Source of the DNA: a virus
Virus record (IMG/VR): IMGVR_UViG_3300027896_000002
Location: 1 to 64,000 of that record
DNA length: 64,000 nucleotides
Direction: 5' to 3' (one strand)
Part shown: positions 5,239-58,279 of the stretch, piece by piece
Layout of the letters: the number at the start of each line of letters is the position of its first letter
Position numbering within the stretch: the first letter of the stretch is position 1
Translations under genes and position numbers: made by a program
The notes under the pieces: model-generated
Seen by the model: the letters and a program-made list of their open reading frames with translations, nothing else
What the model was told of the DNA's origin: nothing
Databases searched by the model: none

Positions 5239-7392
5239 ATGGGATTCTTCGAGTCACTCCAGCAGAACAAGCAGCAGAAGCCAGAGGGGCCACGGACACC
5301 AATCGTTAGCTCCTTTTACACTGCCCCGCAAGCTATCGCGGCTGAGAAGCCCTACTACGCCTTAGTTCAGGCTTATAAGTCCTGGGTTTATACCTGTATT
5401 GACAAGATAGCTAAGGCGGTAGCCATGATCCCGCTGAACCTTTATATCTATCGAAAGGTAAAGTCTGGAACAAAGGTGGTGGACCTTCAGTGGCGAAGTG
5501 AGTACAAATCTATAAAGACTAAAGGGAGGAAGGAGTATTTTCTCAAGCAGATTGGGGTGAAGAAAGAGCAAGTGCTTGACCATCCCTTTCTTTCCCTGAT
5601 TAGCCGTCCCAATCCCTTGATGACTAGATTCATGCTCTGGTATGAGACGATGGTCAGGCTTGAGTTAGGAGGGATGTGTGGATGGCTCCAGATCAAGAAT
5701 GTTTTAAACACCCCCTCAGAGATTTGGCCACTGCCCTTGACTCAATTTGCTAACCTGAGGCCAAAGGTCAGCCCATCGCTTCGGCTTGAGTATTGGGATT
5801 ATCAAGACGGTGACGTGAGGCAGAGGTTTAGGCCAGATGAAATCCTCTTATACAAATACCCACACCCGGCTTCACCTTTCCAAGCCATGTCGCCGTTGAT
5901 GGCACAGACCTACCCCTATGACATTGACCTTTTTCTGATGCAGCAGCAGCGGGCCTTGTTTAAGAACATGGGGATCCCAGGCATTACCCTTGAGACGGAT
6001 GCCGAACTTAGTCCTGATCAAGTTAAAGAGATCAGGGAGCAGTTGTTGTTTGAGTTTGGCAACGCTATGGCTGCAGGCCTCCCGATGATTTTGCATTCGG
6101 GCCTTAAGCAGGGGCAGAAGGCCATGATGAGCAGTAGCCGTGAGGCCATGCTCAACGAGGTGCAGCAGTTCGTCCGAGAAAAATTGATCACGGCCTTTGA
6201 CCTTTCGCCCTCAAAGATTGGGCTTCATGAAAAAGACAATCGGGCAACGGCCGAGGTGGCGGACTGGACGTTTATCAAGGAGTGCTTAAACCCAAAGTGC
6301 ATGCTGATGGAAGAGGTGATCGAGACGTTTGCCCTCCCCCAGTATGACGATGGCCTCACATGCGATTTTGACCTTCCTGATTATCCTGATAATGAATTCA
6401 ATCTCAAGGAGAGGGAGGTAAATCTCAAGACGGGTTATCATTCAATCAACCAGGAGCTTGAGAAAGAAGGTGAGCCACCTGTTCCATGGGGCGAGAAGCC
6501 GTGGATGCCATTTAATTATGTACAATTAGGAGGGACCGTTGTGCCTCCAACTCTAGCAGATGGGGGAACAGACGAGGGCAAGGGAATCAAGTCTCTCAAG
6601 CTGATGAACCGAGCTTTTTGGACCGAGGAAAGGAAAGAACTCTACTGGAAACTTTTTGTCAGGACGGCAGATAACTATCAGCCCCTGATTGAGGGGCCGA
6701 TGAAGAAATATTTTAGCAGCCTTAAGGAAGAAGTTATCAACCGGCTCCACAAGGAAGGAAACAAGGCCCTGAATATTCAAGGCATAAACATTAATAAAAA
6801 GACCGAGGCCAAGAAGCTTGTCAAAAGAACCGAGCCAGCGGTCAGGCAGATAGTGGAAGACGCCGGTCAGCATCGCATGAAGGACCTGCTTGAGACCGTA
6901 AAGCTTCAGACGCAGTTTGAGTGGAATGCCAGGGTGACGGGATGGCTTGGCGATCGCCTGAAACAGTTTTCAGAGCAGGTGTCAGGGACTACCTTTGATG
7001 CGATTGAGAAGATATTAAAAGAAGGGTTTGCGGCGGAGGCCACCATCACCGAGATGGCGGAGACGTTGAGGCAGACGTTTGATTCTTGGGAAGAGTACAG
7101 GGCGGCCAACATCGCTCGCACCGAAACGATTTCTGCCATGAACGCTGGTGACATTGAGGGCGTCCGACAGTCAGGGCTTGAGGATGCTTTGCTTAAGTGC
7201 TGGCTGTCTTCACGGGACGCTGCCGTTCGGCCAACCCATCAGCAGGCAGATGAGGAATACGCTGACGGGATTCCGATGGATGAAGATTTTATCGTTGGCG
7301 CTGATTCGATGGATGCCCCTGGGGAAGGGACAGACCCAGCAGAGGTCTGTAACTGTAGGTGCACGCTCTATTATATAGAGGCAGGCGAGTAA
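5239..7392 (+). CDS. Portal protein (HK97 family) fused to SPP1 gp7/Mu gpF-like head morphogenesis domain
   Basis: WVYTCIDKIA, HPFLSLISRPNPLMT, portal core; C-terminal RAANIARTET, WLSSRD..VRPTH, NCRC. Confidence 0.92.
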   Translation: MGFFESLQQNKQQKPEGPRTPIVSSFYTAPQAIAAEKPYYALVQAYKSWVYTCIDKIAKAVAMIPLNLYIYRKVKSGTKVVDLQWRSEYKSIKTKGRKEYFLKQIGVKKEQVLDHPFLSLISRPNPLMTRFMLWYETMVRLELGGMCGWLQIKNVLNTPSEIWPLPLTQFANLRPKVSPSLRLEYWDYQDGDVRQRFRPDEILLYKYPHPASPFQAMSPLMAQTYPYDIDLFLMQQQRALFKNMGIPGITLETDAELSPDQVKEIREQLLFEFGNAMAAGLPMILHSGLKQGQKAMMSSSREAMLNEVQQFVREKLITAFDLSPSKIGLHEKDNRATAEVADWTFIKECLNPKCMLMEEVIETFALPQYDDGLTCDFDLPDYPDNEFNLKEREVNLKTGYHSINQELEKEGEPPVPWGEKPWMPFNYVQLGGTVVPPTLADGGTDEGKGIKSLKLMNRAFWTEERKELYWKLFVRTADNYQPLIEGPMKKYFSSLKEEVINRLHKEGNKALNIQGININKKTEAKKLVKRTEPAVRQIVEDAGQHRMKDLLETVKLQTQFEWNARVTGWLGDRLKQFSEQVSGTTFDAIEKILKEGFAAEATITEMAETLRQTFDSWEEYRAANIARTETISAMNAGDIEGVRQSGLEDALLKCWLSSRDAAVRPTHQQADEEYADGIPMDEDFIVGADSMDAPGEGTDPAEVCNCRCTLYYIEAGE

Positions 7393-53966: not shown

Positions 53967-54032
53967 GCACTCTTCCTCCCTTAACTTATAAAGCGCCGGC
54001 GGGCCTATCATTAGATAAGCCCACCCCAGGGA
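53967..54032 (-). ncRNA. pseudoknotted RNA motif, copy B (unrecognised)
   Basis: UCCCU-GG-[12-bp hairpin]-G-GCGCUUU-AUAAGUUA-AGGGA-GGA-AGAGUGC; covaries with the copy at 57726-57800. Confidence 0.65.
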
Positions 54033-54033
54033 C

Positions 54034-54219
54034 CTACTTCCTGATGAAGGCGCCGGTCGTTCCCTTTGCAAATTTTCTAATCGCGCTCACGACGCTGGTC
54101 AAATCCTTCGGGTCGATTCGCATCGTGCCAAGAGATGCCTTTCGGTCAGTGGTAAGAAGCATCACGCCAAGGGTCCCACCGTTCTTTTTAATGGCCTTCT
54201 TTGCTGGCTTTTTTGCCAT
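54034..54219 (-). CDS. small basic hypothetical protein
   Basis: SD AAAGGAGGTG; MAKKPAKKAIKK. Confidence 0.7.
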   Translation of the reverse strand: MAKKPAKKAIKKNGGTLGVMLLTTDRKASLGTMRIDPKDLTSVVSAIRKFAKGTTGAFIRK

Positions 54220-54261
54220 GGTCCTCACCTCCTTTCATGGAAAATTTTTACTAATAAAAAA

Positions 54262-54447
54262 TCAACGTAAGTCTATTCTCTCTTTCATTCGGCAATAAAT
54301 AGGATTCCCAGACCTATCTATAAGTTTTGGGCTTAAAATGATATGGCATTTTGGACAGGTCAAAGTCTCCCACTTTTTTATCTCCTCTCCCATTGCCATA
54401 AATTCATCTCCACATACTGTGCAATATAGCATTAAACCCTTTTCCAT
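54262..54447 (-). CDS. zinc-ribbon protein
   Basis: CTVC...CPKC; SD AAGGAG. Confidence 0.7.
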   Translation of the reverse strand: MEKGLMLYCTVCGDEFMAMGEEIKKWETLTCPKCHIILSPKLIDRSGNPIYCRMKERIDLR

Positions 54448-54464
54448 TATTTTATTCTCCTTTC

Positions 54465-55232
54465 TTAATGGCCAATTACCCGTTGACCTTGACCTGGGTT
54501 ATGGCGAAGGGCATTAGCCCTAAGGGAAACCTCGTTGGCCATTTGCTCACCTCGTCGTTGGCCCTCACTGTTGTGCCGAAACTGGTTTAACCTGTTAGCA
54601 GACCTAAGCCCCTTAAGATTTTTCATCCAATCATTTACCTCAGTCAAGGCCCGATCTAACCTAACCAAGGCGGTGGAGCCAGTAGGAGCTGCTGCGTTTC
54701 GCTCGGCATCAAACCGTTTGCTTAGACCAAGGACAAAACCATAAAGCCAAGCACTTCGAAAGCCACGAGCTTCAGTCACATCACCATTGTCGCGGCATTC
54801 GTAAAAGTACTTGACATATTCCTTCTCGGCCATCTTCTCCGCAAGCTTATACATGGTTACAAAAAGATATTCGGCAATCTCACGGTCGCTTTTATGCCCA
54901 ACTAAGCAGATATGATTTGAGCCAACGGAAATTAAGATCTTACAGAAATGGGCCTTAGCAATGATGCTGGCTAATTGCTCAGACCATTGCTGACGGGCCT
55001 TTTTTGAAGTAATTCCTTGAGTTTCAAAGTCAACCCATACCTTACAAATGGGGTCGGTATCTTCTCTCTTGTCCCAATCAACTTCAGACATAGAAAGATT
55101 GTGCTTGAGCAGCAGCTGATTAACCATTCCAGCAAAGGCCTCGGCCTCTTCTTGGCTACCAATTTTCTCACATGATTCTGCCTTTGCATGAAGCTTTCGA
55201 ATCTTGTCAATTACTTTTTCCTCGGTTGTCAT
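54465..55232 (-). CDS. DUF2786-domain protein
   Basis: KVIDKIRKL.AKAE...EEAEAF.....L..KHNL, W...LA..IA..HFC, FR..W..GF. Confidence 0.82.
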   Translation of the reverse strand: MTTEEKVIDKIRKLHAKAESCEKIGSQEEAEAFAGMVNQLLLKHNLSMSEVDWDKREDTDPICKVWVDFETQGITSKKARQQWSEQLASIIAKAHFCKILISVGSNHICLVGHKSDREIAEYLFVTMYKLAEKMAEKEYVKYFYECRDNGDVTEARGFRSAWLYGFVLGLSKRFDAERNAAAPTGSTALVRLDRALTEVNDWMKNLKGLRSANRLNQFRHNSEGQRRGEQMANEVSLRANALRHNPGQGQRVIGH

Positions 55233-55261
55233 GGTGGTCTCCTCCTTTTAGATTTTATTTT

Positions 55262-55317
55262 GTTACCTACCTGGGATTAAACCCAGGTTTCGGCCATTTA
55301 GGCCTCATCAGGGCAAC
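55262..55317 (-). ncRNA. Hammerhead ribozyme, type I (HH1)
   Basis: GUUGCC CUGAUGA GGCC-UAAAU-GGCC GAAA CCUGGG-UUUAAU-CCCAGG UA / GGUAAC; complete core with stems I-III. Confidence 0.92.
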
Positions 55318-55667
55318 TGAATTGAAATTTCAAGGCCATCTTTAAAACTTTGAATTGTGAGTGGAATTTCCTTAATCCGTAAAATCTTTGAAAGGTTTTT
55401 TCCTTGCAGGTCAGTCAATGGTTCTTTAAAATACAGGTGCAATAAAGCCCGTTTATAGGAAAAAGGCTTTGTTTCCATGAAGGAATTGTTAAAATACATC
55501 TGAGACCTGACAACCTCAATGCCCCTTCGTTTAAGGATTGGAAACACTGTTGTTATATGCTTATCAGCCAAGTCACTTAAAAGCTTGCAGTTTTTTTCTG
55601 CTAAATCTGCCTCAAGTAAAAGTTCTTGAACTTCCATCTCAATTCGTTCCTTATTAATCTTTTCCAT
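55308..55667 (-). CDS. hypothetical protein
   Basis: Conserved RBS; the stop codon lies inside the HH1 core. Confidence 0.75.
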   Translation of the reverse strand: MEKINKERIEMEVQELLLEADLAEKNCKLLSDLADKHITTVFPILKRRGIEVVRSQMYFNNSFMETKPFSYKRALLHLYFKEPLTDLQGKNLSKILRIKEIPLTIQSFKDGLEISIQLP

Positions 55668-55697
55668 GGTCTCCTCCTTTTGAATTTTATTTTATAG

Positions 55698-55883
55698 TTA
55701 ACAATCAAATTTACTTTCAACCTTAAACTTCTTGATCGCTTCATTCAGATAACTTTTCTCAATCTGCTTTCCCGCTGAAACAAGAATCGCATAATCGAGG
55801 TCACATCCCTTTAATGTGATCATCAGGGCTAATTTTAATTGGGCTGGCGTCATTTGCATTATGATGCTTTCTAAATTTTCCAT
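55698..55883 (-). CDS. hypothetical protein
   Basis: Conserved RBS. Confidence 0.7.
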   Translation of the reverse strand: MENLESIIMQMTPAQLKLALMITLKGCDLDYAILVSAGKQIEKSYLNEAIKKFKVESKFDC

Positions 55884-55909
55884 AGTCTCCTCCTTTTGAA
55901 TTTTATTTT

Positions 55910-55965
55910 ACCACCGACCCGAGATTAATCTCGGGTTTCGACCATTGAGGTCTCATCAGGATGAT
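55910..55965 (-). ncRNA. Hammerhead ribozyme, type I (HH2)
   Basis: AUCAUC CUGAUGA GACC-UCAAU-GGUC GAAA CCCGAG-AUUAAU-CUCGGG UC / GGUGGU. Confidence 0.92.
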
Positions 55966-56342
55966 TTTCTTGCCTGAAATGTTTCTCCTCTTTTCTCGAT
56001 GATTGCCCCTAATTGAAAAGCCGCTGCCATATCTATTAGATCTTGTACCTCCTCTTTAGCAAGTTTAACGGCTCTGGCAACACTCATCTTCCAATTTTTA
56101 ATGTAATGATCTCGAAGTTGAAAGAGTAAAGTTTCTTCAAGAACTGGAAGCTCTACCACTTTCATCGTGGTGGTAGATTTATTGCACTCAACTCCCGCCA
56201 TTGACCGTCGGCATCCACAGCTTCCATCCACTGTCTCACCATCACACTCAAAGGAAAAATGAACAATCTCACCTTCCGGTACCCAGCAAAAATCATTTTT
56301 CCTTTGCCCCTGCATCTCTTTCGTTGCCACGATAATCTTCAT
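55956..56342 (-). CDS. conserved Cys-motif hypothetical protein
   Basis: QGQR.NDFCW..EGE, CD......CGCRRSMAG; the stop codon lies inside the HH2 core. Confidence 0.75.
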   Translation of the reverse strand: MKIIVATKEMQGQRKNDFCWVPEGEIVHFSFECDGETVDGSCGCRRSMAGVECNKSTTTMKVVELPVLEETLLFQLRDHYIKNWKMSVARAVKLAKEEVQDLIDMAAAFQLGAIIEKRGETFQARKSS

Positions 56343-56383
56343 AATCAGTCTCCTCCGTTTTGCCCATTGGGCGGTTAAAGGTT

Positions 56384-56530
56384 TTAATAAATTTCCCTGG
56401 CATTGATCGAATCAACTGTGATCTTTGCTGGCCCATTTTCCAAGGTCATTTTAATATACTCTTCGATCTGCCCGTCACCATCCATCTCACCATCATTGAC
56501 TTCAATCTCCATTATAACTTTTATCTTCAT
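56384..56530 (-). CDS. small hypothetical protein (48 aa)
   Basis: Conserved RBS; MKIKVIMEIEVNDGEMDGDGQIEEYIKMTLENGPAKITVDSINAREIY. Confidence 0.65.
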   Translation of the reverse strand: MKIKVIMEIEVNDGEMDGDGQIEEYIKMTLENGPAKITVDSINAREIY

Positions 56531-56556
56531 GGTCTCCTCCTTTTTAATTTTATTCT

Positions 56557-56611
56557 ATCATCGACCCGAGTTAAACTCGGGTTTCGACCATTTAGGTCTC
56601 ATCAGGATGAT
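56557..56611 (-). ncRNA. Hammerhead ribozyme, type I (HH3)
   Basis: AUCAUC CUGAUGA GACC-UAAAU-GGUC GAAA CCCGAG-UUUAA-CUCGGG UC / GAUGAU. Confidence 0.93.
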
Positions 56612-56627
56612 TTTTATATTTTTCTCA

Positions 56628-56906
56628 TTAGATTACTCTTACGATAGAAAGATAAGGTGTCGTATCCTGCTCCAATTTCCATCGCATCCTATCAACTATC
56701 AAATTAAGATCCATTCTGTGCGTGAAGTCTTGCTCCTCACCGTGCTCAAAATTAATGGTCACGATGAACTCCGTCTTCTCCTCGTCCTGCATATTGCTGT
56801 GAGAAGAAGAGACTCTCGACTTTGGAAAAAAAGATGCTGCCACTCTATAAAGACTGTTCATCTCGTTCCATGCTACTGCTCTTTTTTCCTGAATTTTTTT
56901 ATTCAT
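56628..56906 (-). CDS. hypothetical protein
   Basis: Conserved RBS. Confidence 0.7.
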   Translation of the reverse strand: MNKKIQEKRAVAWNEMNSLYRVAASFFPKSRVSSSHSNMQDEEKTEFIVTINFEHGEEQDFTHRMDLNLIVDRMRWKLEQDTTPYLSIVRVI

Positions 56907-56941
56907 TTTGGTCTCCTCCTTTTAAAATTTGAATTTAAAAT

Positions 56942-57136
56942 TTAAGGCAATACAACAATTTCCAAAGCACCAGGAAAATTTCTTTTTATCTCTTTTAGAG
57001 CACTGGTAAAAAATCCATATCTCATTTCTCTAAAAGCCTGGCCGTTAGAATATTTAATATTAAACCACCATTGACCTTTTCCTTTTGGTTCTTTTCCATG
57101 GCTAAAAAAATATTCATTCTTATTTATTGCTTTCAT
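56942..57136 (-). CDS. hypothetical protein
   Basis: Conserved RBS; Y..SHGK.PKG.G.W.F motif. Confidence 0.72.
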   Translation of the reverse strand: MKAINKNEYFFSHGKEPKGKGQWWFNIKYSNGQAFREMRYGFFTSALKEIKRNFPGALEIVVLP

Positions 57137-57164
57137 CTTGGTCTCCTCCTTTTAAATTTTTTAG

Positions 57165-57407
57165 TTAGAACCTGCAGTTAACTTCAAAGTAAGAATCCTT
57201 TGGCCATGCTCGCCATATTTTCCAAGCATTGATAATCTCGACATGGGGAAATATTTTTTTAATTTGTTCAGCATAACTCTCAGCTGTTTTCCCAAAGGTA
57301 TAAAAGAATCCAAACCTAAAACTTATCGTCTTATCCTTTTTGAAGATAATTTTATCAGGATAGATATTGGTCCCATCAATCATCTCTTTGAATTGTCTTT
57401 TTGTCAT
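57165..57407 (-). CDS. hypothetical protein
   Basis: Conserved RBS. Confidence 0.72.
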   Translation of the reverse strand: MTKRQFKEMIDGTNIYPDKIIFKKDKTISFRFGFFYTFGKTAESYAEQIKKIFPHVEIINAWKIWRAWPKDSYFEVNCRF

Positions 57408-57422
57408 GGTCTCCTCCTTTTT

Positions 57423-57551
57423 TTACTTAATCCCTTTAACAAGGATTTGAAGTGCGACCGGCTCTAAAGAAAATAGAACCTTAATCGCTGTTAGAAATCC
57501 AATGATCTTCCAAATTCCAAAAAAATTTTTCTTTGTGATGTTGCCTTTCAT
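57423..57551 (-). CDS. small hypothetical protein (42 aa)
   Basis: Conserved RBS; MKGNITKKNFFGIWKIIGFLTAIKVLFSLEPVALQILVKGIK. Confidence 0.6.
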   Translation of the reverse strand: MKGNITKKNFFGIWKIIGFLTAIKVLFSLEPVALQILVKGIK

Positions 57552-57565
57552 TTTGGTCTCCTCCT

Positions 57566-57700
57566 TTATTTTTTGATAAGGCTTTTATGAATAATTTTTC
57601 CAGTAGAAAGTACAAGAAAACCTCTACCATAACCATCTTCCTTTGTTGCTTTTCTAATAATAAAAATTTCCTTATTTCTAAACGTGTAAACTTTTCTCAT
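57566..57700 (-). CDS. small hypothetical protein (44 aa), first gene of early operon
   Basis: Conserved RBS; MRKVYTFRNKEIFIIRKATKEDGYGRGFLVLSTGKIIHKSLIKK. Confidence 0.62.
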   Translation of the reverse strand: MRKVYTFRNKEIFIIRKATKEDGYGRGFLVLSTGKIIHKSLIKK

Positions 57701-57725
57701 GGTCTCCTCCTTTTAAATTTTAATC

Positions 57726-57800
57726 GCGGCTTGCAACCCTTAACTTTTTTACCGCCGGCATGATCTATATCTTAATGATATAAACCACGCCACAGGGTCA
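57726..57800 (-). ncRNA. pseudoknotted RNA motif, copy A (unrecognised)
   Basis: UGACCCU-GU-[15-bp hairpin]-G-GCGGU-AAAAAAGUUA-AGGGUUG-CAA-GCCGC. Confidence 0.65.
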
Positions 57801-58012
57801 TTTTGTCTTTTCACTCTTCAGTTGTCAAGGTTGGTGGCGGATTATTCTAATGATAGGCCTGAAAAATGTTTTTCAGATCCTACGTTCGAAACGCCTTGGT
57901 TATTGTCAAAAACTTCTGCCTTTGCCAATGAGGCTTGGTCCCCGGCTCGCTTGTTGCCTTTGTTTCTCGCCTCGCTTGCCTCATGATATTTATTAATCTT
58001 AACCATGACCTA

Positions 58013-58041
58013 ATCCTACTATATCTAAATGATAATGTAAA
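58013..58041 (-). promoter_or_regulatory. sigma70-type promoter for the early operon
   Basis: TTTACA-17 bp-TAGGAT on the minus strand, with an AT-rich upstream region. Confidence 0.55.
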
Positions 58042-58188: not shown

Positions 58189-58279
58189 CTTTTGAGTTAG
58201 AAACTAACACATTTCTCCTGGATAATATTATTTTTTTCAATATTCAATTCCATGATGATCTGGACATCATTATAGAGCT

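Follow-up and report, generated by a model that had tools for sequence, protein, structure and literature searches.

Three predicted type I hammerhead ribozymes within one operon of an uncultured freshwater phage: structure, class and possible role in transcript processing

What might three hammerhead ribozymes, set within 1.35 kb of a single phage operon, do for the transcript that carries them? The question is raised by the IMG/VR virus record IMGVR_UViG_3300027896_000002, a 74,127-bp virus genome that is complete by CheckV. Positions 1 to 64,000 of the record were analysed and are referred to below as the window. A preliminary description of the window had reported three type I hammerheads (HH1, HH2, and HH3) in an early operon, and had proposed that they process a polycistronic mRNA, possibly under the control of terminating ribosomes and with circularisation of the fragments. 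The follow-up analysis points to HH1–HH3 being, with good probability, active and constitutively self-cleaving type I hammerheads that belong to a large class, common among uncultured phages, and divide the operon transcript. Cleavage itself is expected because the cores are intact and because hammerheads of other phages were active in published assays; what is said below on RNA stability and translation is prediction.

Structure of HH1–HH3 and their place among known hammerheads

All three hammerheads are on the coding strand (minus), where they bound two two-gene blocks. HH3 (56611–56557) consists of stem I AUCAUC/GAUGAU, the core CUGAUGA, stem II GACC/GGUC with the loop UAAAU, GAAA, a stem III in which A and CCCGAG are paired with CUCGGG and U, and C17 as the last element; its predicted cut is after GUC, at 56563/56562. 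HH2 (55965–55910, minus) is predicted to be cut after GUC at 55916/55915. Its stem I, AUCAUC/GGUGGU, includes two G-U pairs and has the same 5′ strand as that of HH3, and its stem III is one pair longer. HH1 (55317–55262, minus) has a GUA cleavage triplet with a predicted cut at 55268/55267, stem I GUUGCC/GGUAAC, stem II GGCC/GGCC, and stem III CCUGGG/CCCAGG. The cut coordinates given in the preliminary description were verified on the minus strand.

The common plan is CUGAUGA, a stem II of 4 bp with a loop of five nucleotides (nt), GAAA, an A15.1-U16.1 pair, and a stem III of 7–8 bp. Every nucleotide required in a hammerhead core is present in each motif (C3 U4 G5 A6 N7 G8 A9, G12 A13 A14, A15.1-U16.1, and an H17 other than G). 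The three helices are arranged as expected, with stem I open, stems II and III closed by loops, and the pairs adjacent to the core intact. When HH1, HH2, and HH3 were folded in isolation, the hammerhead was both the minimum-energy and the centroid structure for each, and the folding z-scores were −4.3 for HH3 and −4.1 for HH1. The compensatory changes that had been noticed in stems I, II, and III were borne out by an alignment that added the hammerhead of L128, a related contig, to HH1–HH3: none of the 17 pairs was broken in any of the sequences, and double-sided changes had occurred in 7 of the 17, namely in three pairs each of stems I and III and in one of stem II. Control alignments that had been slid out of register paired at only 18–46%. 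A second copy of AUCAUCG is found at 56003–55997 (minus), inside the 128-amino-acid (aa) open reading frame (ORF) upstream of HH2; seven pairs are possible between it and 55916–55910, which comprise C17 and the 3′ strand of stem I of HH2.

Membership was examined with a descriptor and with covariance models. The descriptor scan demanded an exact core and at least 4, 3, and 4 pairs in stems I, II, and III, respectively; it returned three matches in the window and one in 300 shuffled windows, both strands being searched. A covariance model, class model R1, was built from 60 type I hammerheads on unrelated IMG/VR contigs, with this phage and its relatives left out. HH3, HH2, and HH1 scored 59.2, 56.5, and 54.0 bits with it (E-values 1e-12 to 3e-14), and the next-best match in the window had 14 bits. 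The three type I hammerheads with intact cores that had been described at the outset were thus recovered from sequence, from minimum-energy folds, and from the class model.

A check with covariance models had been suggested in the preliminary description, and it succeeded with the class model and failed at the Rfam gathering scores. At these scores, a scan of the whole window returned zero matches. With relaxed thresholds, RF00163 (Hammerhead_1, cut-off 34) reported HH3 at 33.7 bits (E 5e-6) and HH2 at 15.2 bits and did not report HH1, and RF03152 (RAGATH-1-hammerhead) gave 45.2, 28.6, and 23.0 bits, all below its cut-off of 56.3. Because class model R1 scores the same three motifs at 54–59 bits, the shortfall with RF00163 reflects the Rfam model and not the motifs. 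The topology, the core, and the stem II loop consensus of RF00163 are those of HH1–HH3, and the miss is likely due to the long stem III and the G-U pairs in stem I. Standard Rfam annotation thresholds overlook HH1–HH3 and, more broadly, this common phage subclass. RF03152 was the best Rfam match by bits; like the window motifs, it has an A/U-rich stretch on the 5′ side of stem I, and the core is shared as well. Membership in RAGATH-1 was nevertheless rejected on the sub-threshold scores, the regular 4-bp stem II, and the lack of a convincing 5′ hairpin.

That HH1–HH3 resemble ribozymes by chance and are none is the reading that the unmatched gathering scores would favour. It has next to no probability when set against the shuffled windows, the class-model E-values, and the compensatory stem changes; as far as sequence analysis reaches, it is already refuted.

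Stop codons, leaders and the phage hammerhead class

As had been noted, the first UGA of the core is also the stop codon of the upstream gene in HH2 and in HH1. The 128-aa ORF (55956–56342, minus; DUF7715, Pfam E 5.6e-30) ends with the UGA at 55958–55956, the first of the HH2 core; the last codons and the stop of this ORF share sequence with the core of HH2 and with the 5′ strand of its stem I. The 119-aa ORF (55308–55667, minus) ends in the same manner with the UGA at 55310–55308 in HH1. HH3 is intergenic: it lies in a 97-nt spacer between the stop of a 92-aa ORF (56628), which is 16 nt ahead of stem I, and the ATG of a 48-aa ORF (56530).

The leaders of about 30 nt that had been predicted to follow each cut measure 32, 32, and 35 nt from cut to ATG. 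An A-rich leader, AAAAUAAAAU..., with the strong Shine-Dalgarno sequence AAAGGAGGAGAC directly follows HH1 (55233–55261, minus), and copies of this cassette follow HH2 (55884–55909, minus) and HH3 (56531–56556, minus). The two-gene fragments between the ribozymes, put at about 650 nt before, are 647 nt for the unit with the 48-aa and 128-aa ORFs (unit 1, 55916–56562, minus) and 648 nt for that with the 61-aa and 119-aa ORFs (unit 2, 55268–55915, minus). By blastn and blastp the two units are alike only in their leader and hammerhead parts. Their near-equal lengths therefore do not stem from duplication, and unit 2 as a duplicate of unit 1 was rejected.

To place these arrangements, IMG/VR loci among the matches listed were fetched and surveyed. 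The stem II motif of the class occurs on more than 119 IMG/VR contigs. In the fetched loci, 167 distinct type I hammerheads were detected, often grouped in arrays with as many as nine at one locus; neighbours are spaced by a median of 735 nt, and the cut lies a median of 26 nt (interquartile range 22–33) ahead of the next start codon. In the 95 members with the loop motif, stem I has 6 bp, A-7 and A+7 are both present in 100%, and G-6 and C+6 in 96%; the invariant A-7 and A+7 that flank stem I are retained in HH1, HH2, and HH3. Loop II is kept as UNAAU in the class and in the three window motifs. Fast cutting at cellular Mg2+ requires a tertiary contact of loop II with stem I; mutual information between the variable nucleotide of the loop and the flanks revealed no clear covarying partner.

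Stop codons were evaluated for the 152 hammerheads preceded by an ORF of 40 codons or more, with positions counted from the C of CUGAUGA. In about 70% of them, ribozyme and upstream stop overlap. It falls at −9/−8 in 34 cases, where the conserved A-7 and G-6 are used; at −3 in 32, as a UAA that closes stem I; at +1 in 28, as the core UGA of HH1 and HH2; and at +11/+12 in 14, in loop II. The ORFs that end at −5 or later use all three reading frames (36, 30, and 16). The stop overlaps of HH1 and HH2 are, by this pattern of positions and frames, typical of the class. Stops at several positions and in all frames point to opportunistic use of conserved nucleotides and to genome compaction over a designed ribosome gate, and the overlap is best read as compaction, in which ORFs would run on until the conserved nucleotides of the ribozyme supply a stop. 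Functional models must explain two class figures: the overlap in about 70% of the cases and the cut 22–33 nt ahead of the start codon.

Several surveyed loci carry dense arrays. Three type I hammerheads lie within 700 nt of a 1772-bp metagenome contig (L161, minus), all with stem I GGUUAA/UUAACC. Three IMG/VR loci (L113, L040, and L009) hold nine, seven, and six type I hammerheads, each array within 15 kb and on one strand, and are much larger than the array of the window.

Relatives, predicted processing and alternative readings

Relatives were found by the hammerhead-plus-leader pattern, which retrieved a few contigs, among them L158, L128, and L162; these three carry a hammerhead with a leader like those of the window. 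The 78-kb metagenome contig L158 encodes close homologues of the 42-aa and 48-aa proteins of the window. At the head of the homologous operon, L158 and L128, both freshwater phage contigs, have a Twister-P5 ribozyme (RF02684, cut-off 37.6) at 5409–5474 (+; 51.0 bits) and 1822–1884 (+; 50.2 bits), respectively. The hammerhead of L158 lies two genes past the start of the 48-aa gene, and both of its ribozymes are followed by an A-rich leader and a ribosome-binding site; the design of L128 matches. In both contigs the gene ahead of the hammerhead encodes a protein of about 200 aa in place of DUF7715. These differing neighbours and positions suggest that the ribozyme slot is conserved, with its occupancy and neighbours fluid. 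Twister-P5 has a fold other than the hammerhead, and the order ribozyme, A-rich leader, Shine-Dalgarno sequence, and ATG is the same. Two ribozyme folds that are interchangeable in an equivalent slot point to cleavage itself as the function. No Twister-P5 was found in the genome of this phage.

Other searches were less productive. A blastn search of 54000–58000 against GenBank phages gave no match, and in IMG/VR the 255-aa protein led to no relatives, nor did the 48-aa protein. For the 128-aa DUF7715 protein, 77 homologues were obtained, leading to 28 IMG/VR loci; these contained no type I hammerhead by descriptor scan and no ribozyme at Rfam gathering score, so the hammerhead does not travel with the DUF7715 gene. 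The hammerhead-plus-leader pattern had no match in GTDB genomes. The plain class pattern had 11 there, in very diverse metagenome-assembled genomes that gave no pointer to a host.

The processing envisaged runs as follows. Transcription of the minus-strand operon from near 58000 would yield one long RNA, in which each hammerhead, about 55 nt filling the gap between two genes, would cut itself after H17. The upstream product would retain its stop codon, about 43 nt from the new 3′ end, and would end in the hairpins of stems II and III with a 2′,3′-cyclic phosphate. The 6-bp stem I would dissociate after the cut. The downstream product would begin with a 5′-OH and 6 nt of the former stem I, followed by the A-rich leader and the strong Shine-Dalgarno sequence; the 5′-OH would lie about 20 nt ahead of the latter, and the start codon 32–35 nt after the cut. 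Cleavage of the operon would give one piece with five genes, two with two genes each, and the remainder. Each piece would have defined ends, decay independently, and possess its own translation-start region, cleared of ribosomes from upstream as well as of the folded ribozyme.

Besides the Rfam result, several points weigh against this account. The Shine-Dalgarno sites are not masked in folds of the uncleaved RNA, and cutting is therefore not obviously required for translation. When HH2 is folded in a context of 144 nt, C17 and the 3′ strand are paired to the distal AUCAUCG in place of stem I in the minimum-energy structure, and HH2 may therefore misfold or cut slowly. No hammerhead precedes the 48-aa gene in L158 or L128. 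The stretch is contained in one sequencing run only, which is DNA from a freshwater metagenome. In Bacillus subtilis, a 5′-OH end marks the glmS product for RNase J1, so any stabilisation would be host-dependent; the direction of the effect would be set by the RNases of the host.

The alternatives differ in what they make of the same features. If the terminating ribosome unfolded stem I, the core, and stem II, the cut would occur only when the upstream ORF is not translated, and processing would be coupled to translation. Such a reading is invited by the core UGA that ends the 128-aa and 119-aa ORFs, by the frequent stop overlap in the class, with 28 cases at exactly +1, and by the alternative pairing of HH2, which involves a segment in the upstream ORF and would be melted by a translating ribosome. 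Selected overlap would make the hammerheads translation sensors that time the release of the downstream early message as upstream translation falls. Stops at four to five ribozyme positions and in all frames are, however, what run-on to the first available stop would produce; HH3 and the hammerheads of the relatives lie past the stop and not on it, and the alternative pairing is absent from HH1 and HH3, its distal strand encoding a conserved protein motif. Gated cleavage, as put forward in the preliminary description, gains no specific support from the class and is considered unlikely. In another reading, the hammerhead and leader would be mobile or duplicated cassettes that bring the phage hardly any advantage and spread as the standardised translation-start regions recombine with one another. 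This would account for the hammerhead positions and flanking genes that differ between this phage and L158 and L128, for the 28 DUF7715-homologue loci without a hammerhead, and for the near-identity of HH2, HH3, and the L158 hammerhead, which recent duplication predicts. The intact core nucleotides in all copies, the compensatory stem changes, and a placement rule (flush with the stop and 22–33 nt before the start) across more than 150 unrelated examples argue against it, and a mobile cassette of this kind is judged quite improbable.

Circularisation of the pieces of about 650 nt, by hammerhead ligation or by host RtcB, would give circular two-gene mRNAs. Both fragments would bear the necessary 5′-OH and 2′,3′-cyclic phosphate ends, their lengths are nearly equal, and in both units the upstream hammerhead's 3′ strand can form 6 of 6 pairs with the 5′ strand of the downstream hammerhead. 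The pairing between HH2 and HH1 includes four G-U pairs, though, and among 51 neighbouring pairs of the class the forward mean of 4.41 of 6 was matched by 4.33 in the irrelevant reverse combination, each direction winning 14 times. Searches of the phage for the RtcB and RNA_ligase (PF09414) families gave no match, and circular or spliced products were sought for other phage hammerheads by Perreault et al. in 2011 with none found (PMC3088659). The earlier suggestion of circles is therefore unsupported and very improbable here, and a ribozyme-flanked circular RNA of the retrozyme or viroid-like type was rejected for the missing directional excess and the absent ligase matches. Constitutive self-cleavage that divides the operon transcript is the reading retained.

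Layout of the operon and comparison with known systems

The minus-strand block of small genes starts after a terminator-like hairpin (58309–58292), which ends a helicase gene, and a non-coding stretch of about 560 nt. Thirteen of its genes have a nearly identical ribosome-binding site: between 52358 and 57713, the minus strand has 13 copies of the 12-mer AAAGGAGGAGAC with at most one mismatch, whereas chance would produce 0.5 matches when both strands of the whole window are counted. The copies all lie 3–8 nt ahead of start codons, several of them following AAAAUAAAAU. Between the first gene of the operon (ATG 57700) and the 255-aa ORF, the hammerheads occupy three of the four longest spacers (97, 72, and 75 nt). 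The fourth longest (41 nt) separates the 48-aa and 128-aa ORFs, and the remaining ones are 14–35 nt. Domain matches among the other block products were DUF2786 and DUF7168 in the 255-aa protein and DUF932 in a 294-aa protein; most products are of unknown family. From this layout, the label of an early operon is plausible.

In the 41-nt spacer (56383–56343, minus), a small hairpin GCCC-AAU-GGGC was observed; the equivalent spacer of L128 has GCC-UAAUA-GGC, with the stem kept and the sequence altered. Downstream of the terminator-like hairpin, a consensus scan gave two weak promoter candidates on the minus strand, TTGACA-17-CAAAAT at 57828–57800 and TTTACA-17-TAGGAT at 58041–58013, and hits of this kind were no more numerous than in shuffles. 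Two direct repeats of about 28 nt with a consensus near AGSCCTAATRATTTCAATAACTTAGAAA lie at 58200–58060 (minus), in the non-coding DNA that precedes the operon, and could be an operator or another regulatory site.

A pseudoknot-like element in two copies (57795–57715 and 54040–53962, minus) occupies slots like those of the hammerheads, behind a stop or promoter and ahead of the standard leader and ribosome-binding site. The copies share CCCUG, a variable hairpin closed by GGC/GCC, GCCGGCG, and AAGUUAAGGG, and they differ in a compensatory manner in the CCCU/AGGG flank (A-U versus U-A) and in a GCGN/NNGC stem. The corresponding slot at the operon head is the one filled by Twister-P5 in L158 and L128. 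No Rfam match was found for the element at E up to 10, and a pattern search in IMG/VR gave mostly chance matches inside genes.

Clustered hammerheads that flank genes in prophages and phages were described in 2011 from Clostridium scindens, Azorhizobium caulinodans, and Agrobacterium tumefaciens; tandem phage hammerheads cleaved in vitro and in vivo, and processing into gene-length mRNAs was proposed (PMC3088659). A review of 2019 still listed the function of such hammerheads as unresolved (PMC6765202). A paper of 2026 regards type I hammerheads as typical for bacteria and phages and shows that, in eukaryotic RNA viruses, translation is aided by ribozymes placed directly ahead of ORFs (PMC13725137). 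The present array has the features of a clustered phage hammerhead system, with at least two hammerheads on the sense strand of one operon that bound genes. It resembles the clusters of 2011 in that same-orientation hammerheads within a few kb bound genes or short blocks of variable identity, and for those clusters, too, polycistronic RNA processing was proposed and circular products were considered. mRNA processing by HH1–HH3 is thus a plausible reading by analogy with that published hypothesis (PMC3088659). The differences are that the hammerheads here are of type I, with an open 6-bp stem I, and come from an uncultured freshwater phage, and that the core UGA is the upstream stop in two of the three; the term 'stop codon' is not mentioned in that paper (PMC3088659), and in the literature no paper was found that states a stop-codon overlap for phage hammerheads.

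For the role of genome-encoded phage hammerheads, the locus offers a compact and clean test case: two of the three ribozymes are fused to stop codons, each ribozyme precedes a standardised leader and ribosome-binding site, and in the relatives a twister is found in an equivalent slot. A further comparison is with insulators of the RiboJ type, in which a hammerhead just upstream of a ribosome-binding site gives the translated RNA a fixed 5′ end. These insulators are engineered, from a type III satellite-RNA ribozyme and an added hairpin. The likeness would be one of working and not of membership, and by this analogy the phage hammerhead with its leader may be regarded as their natural counterpart.

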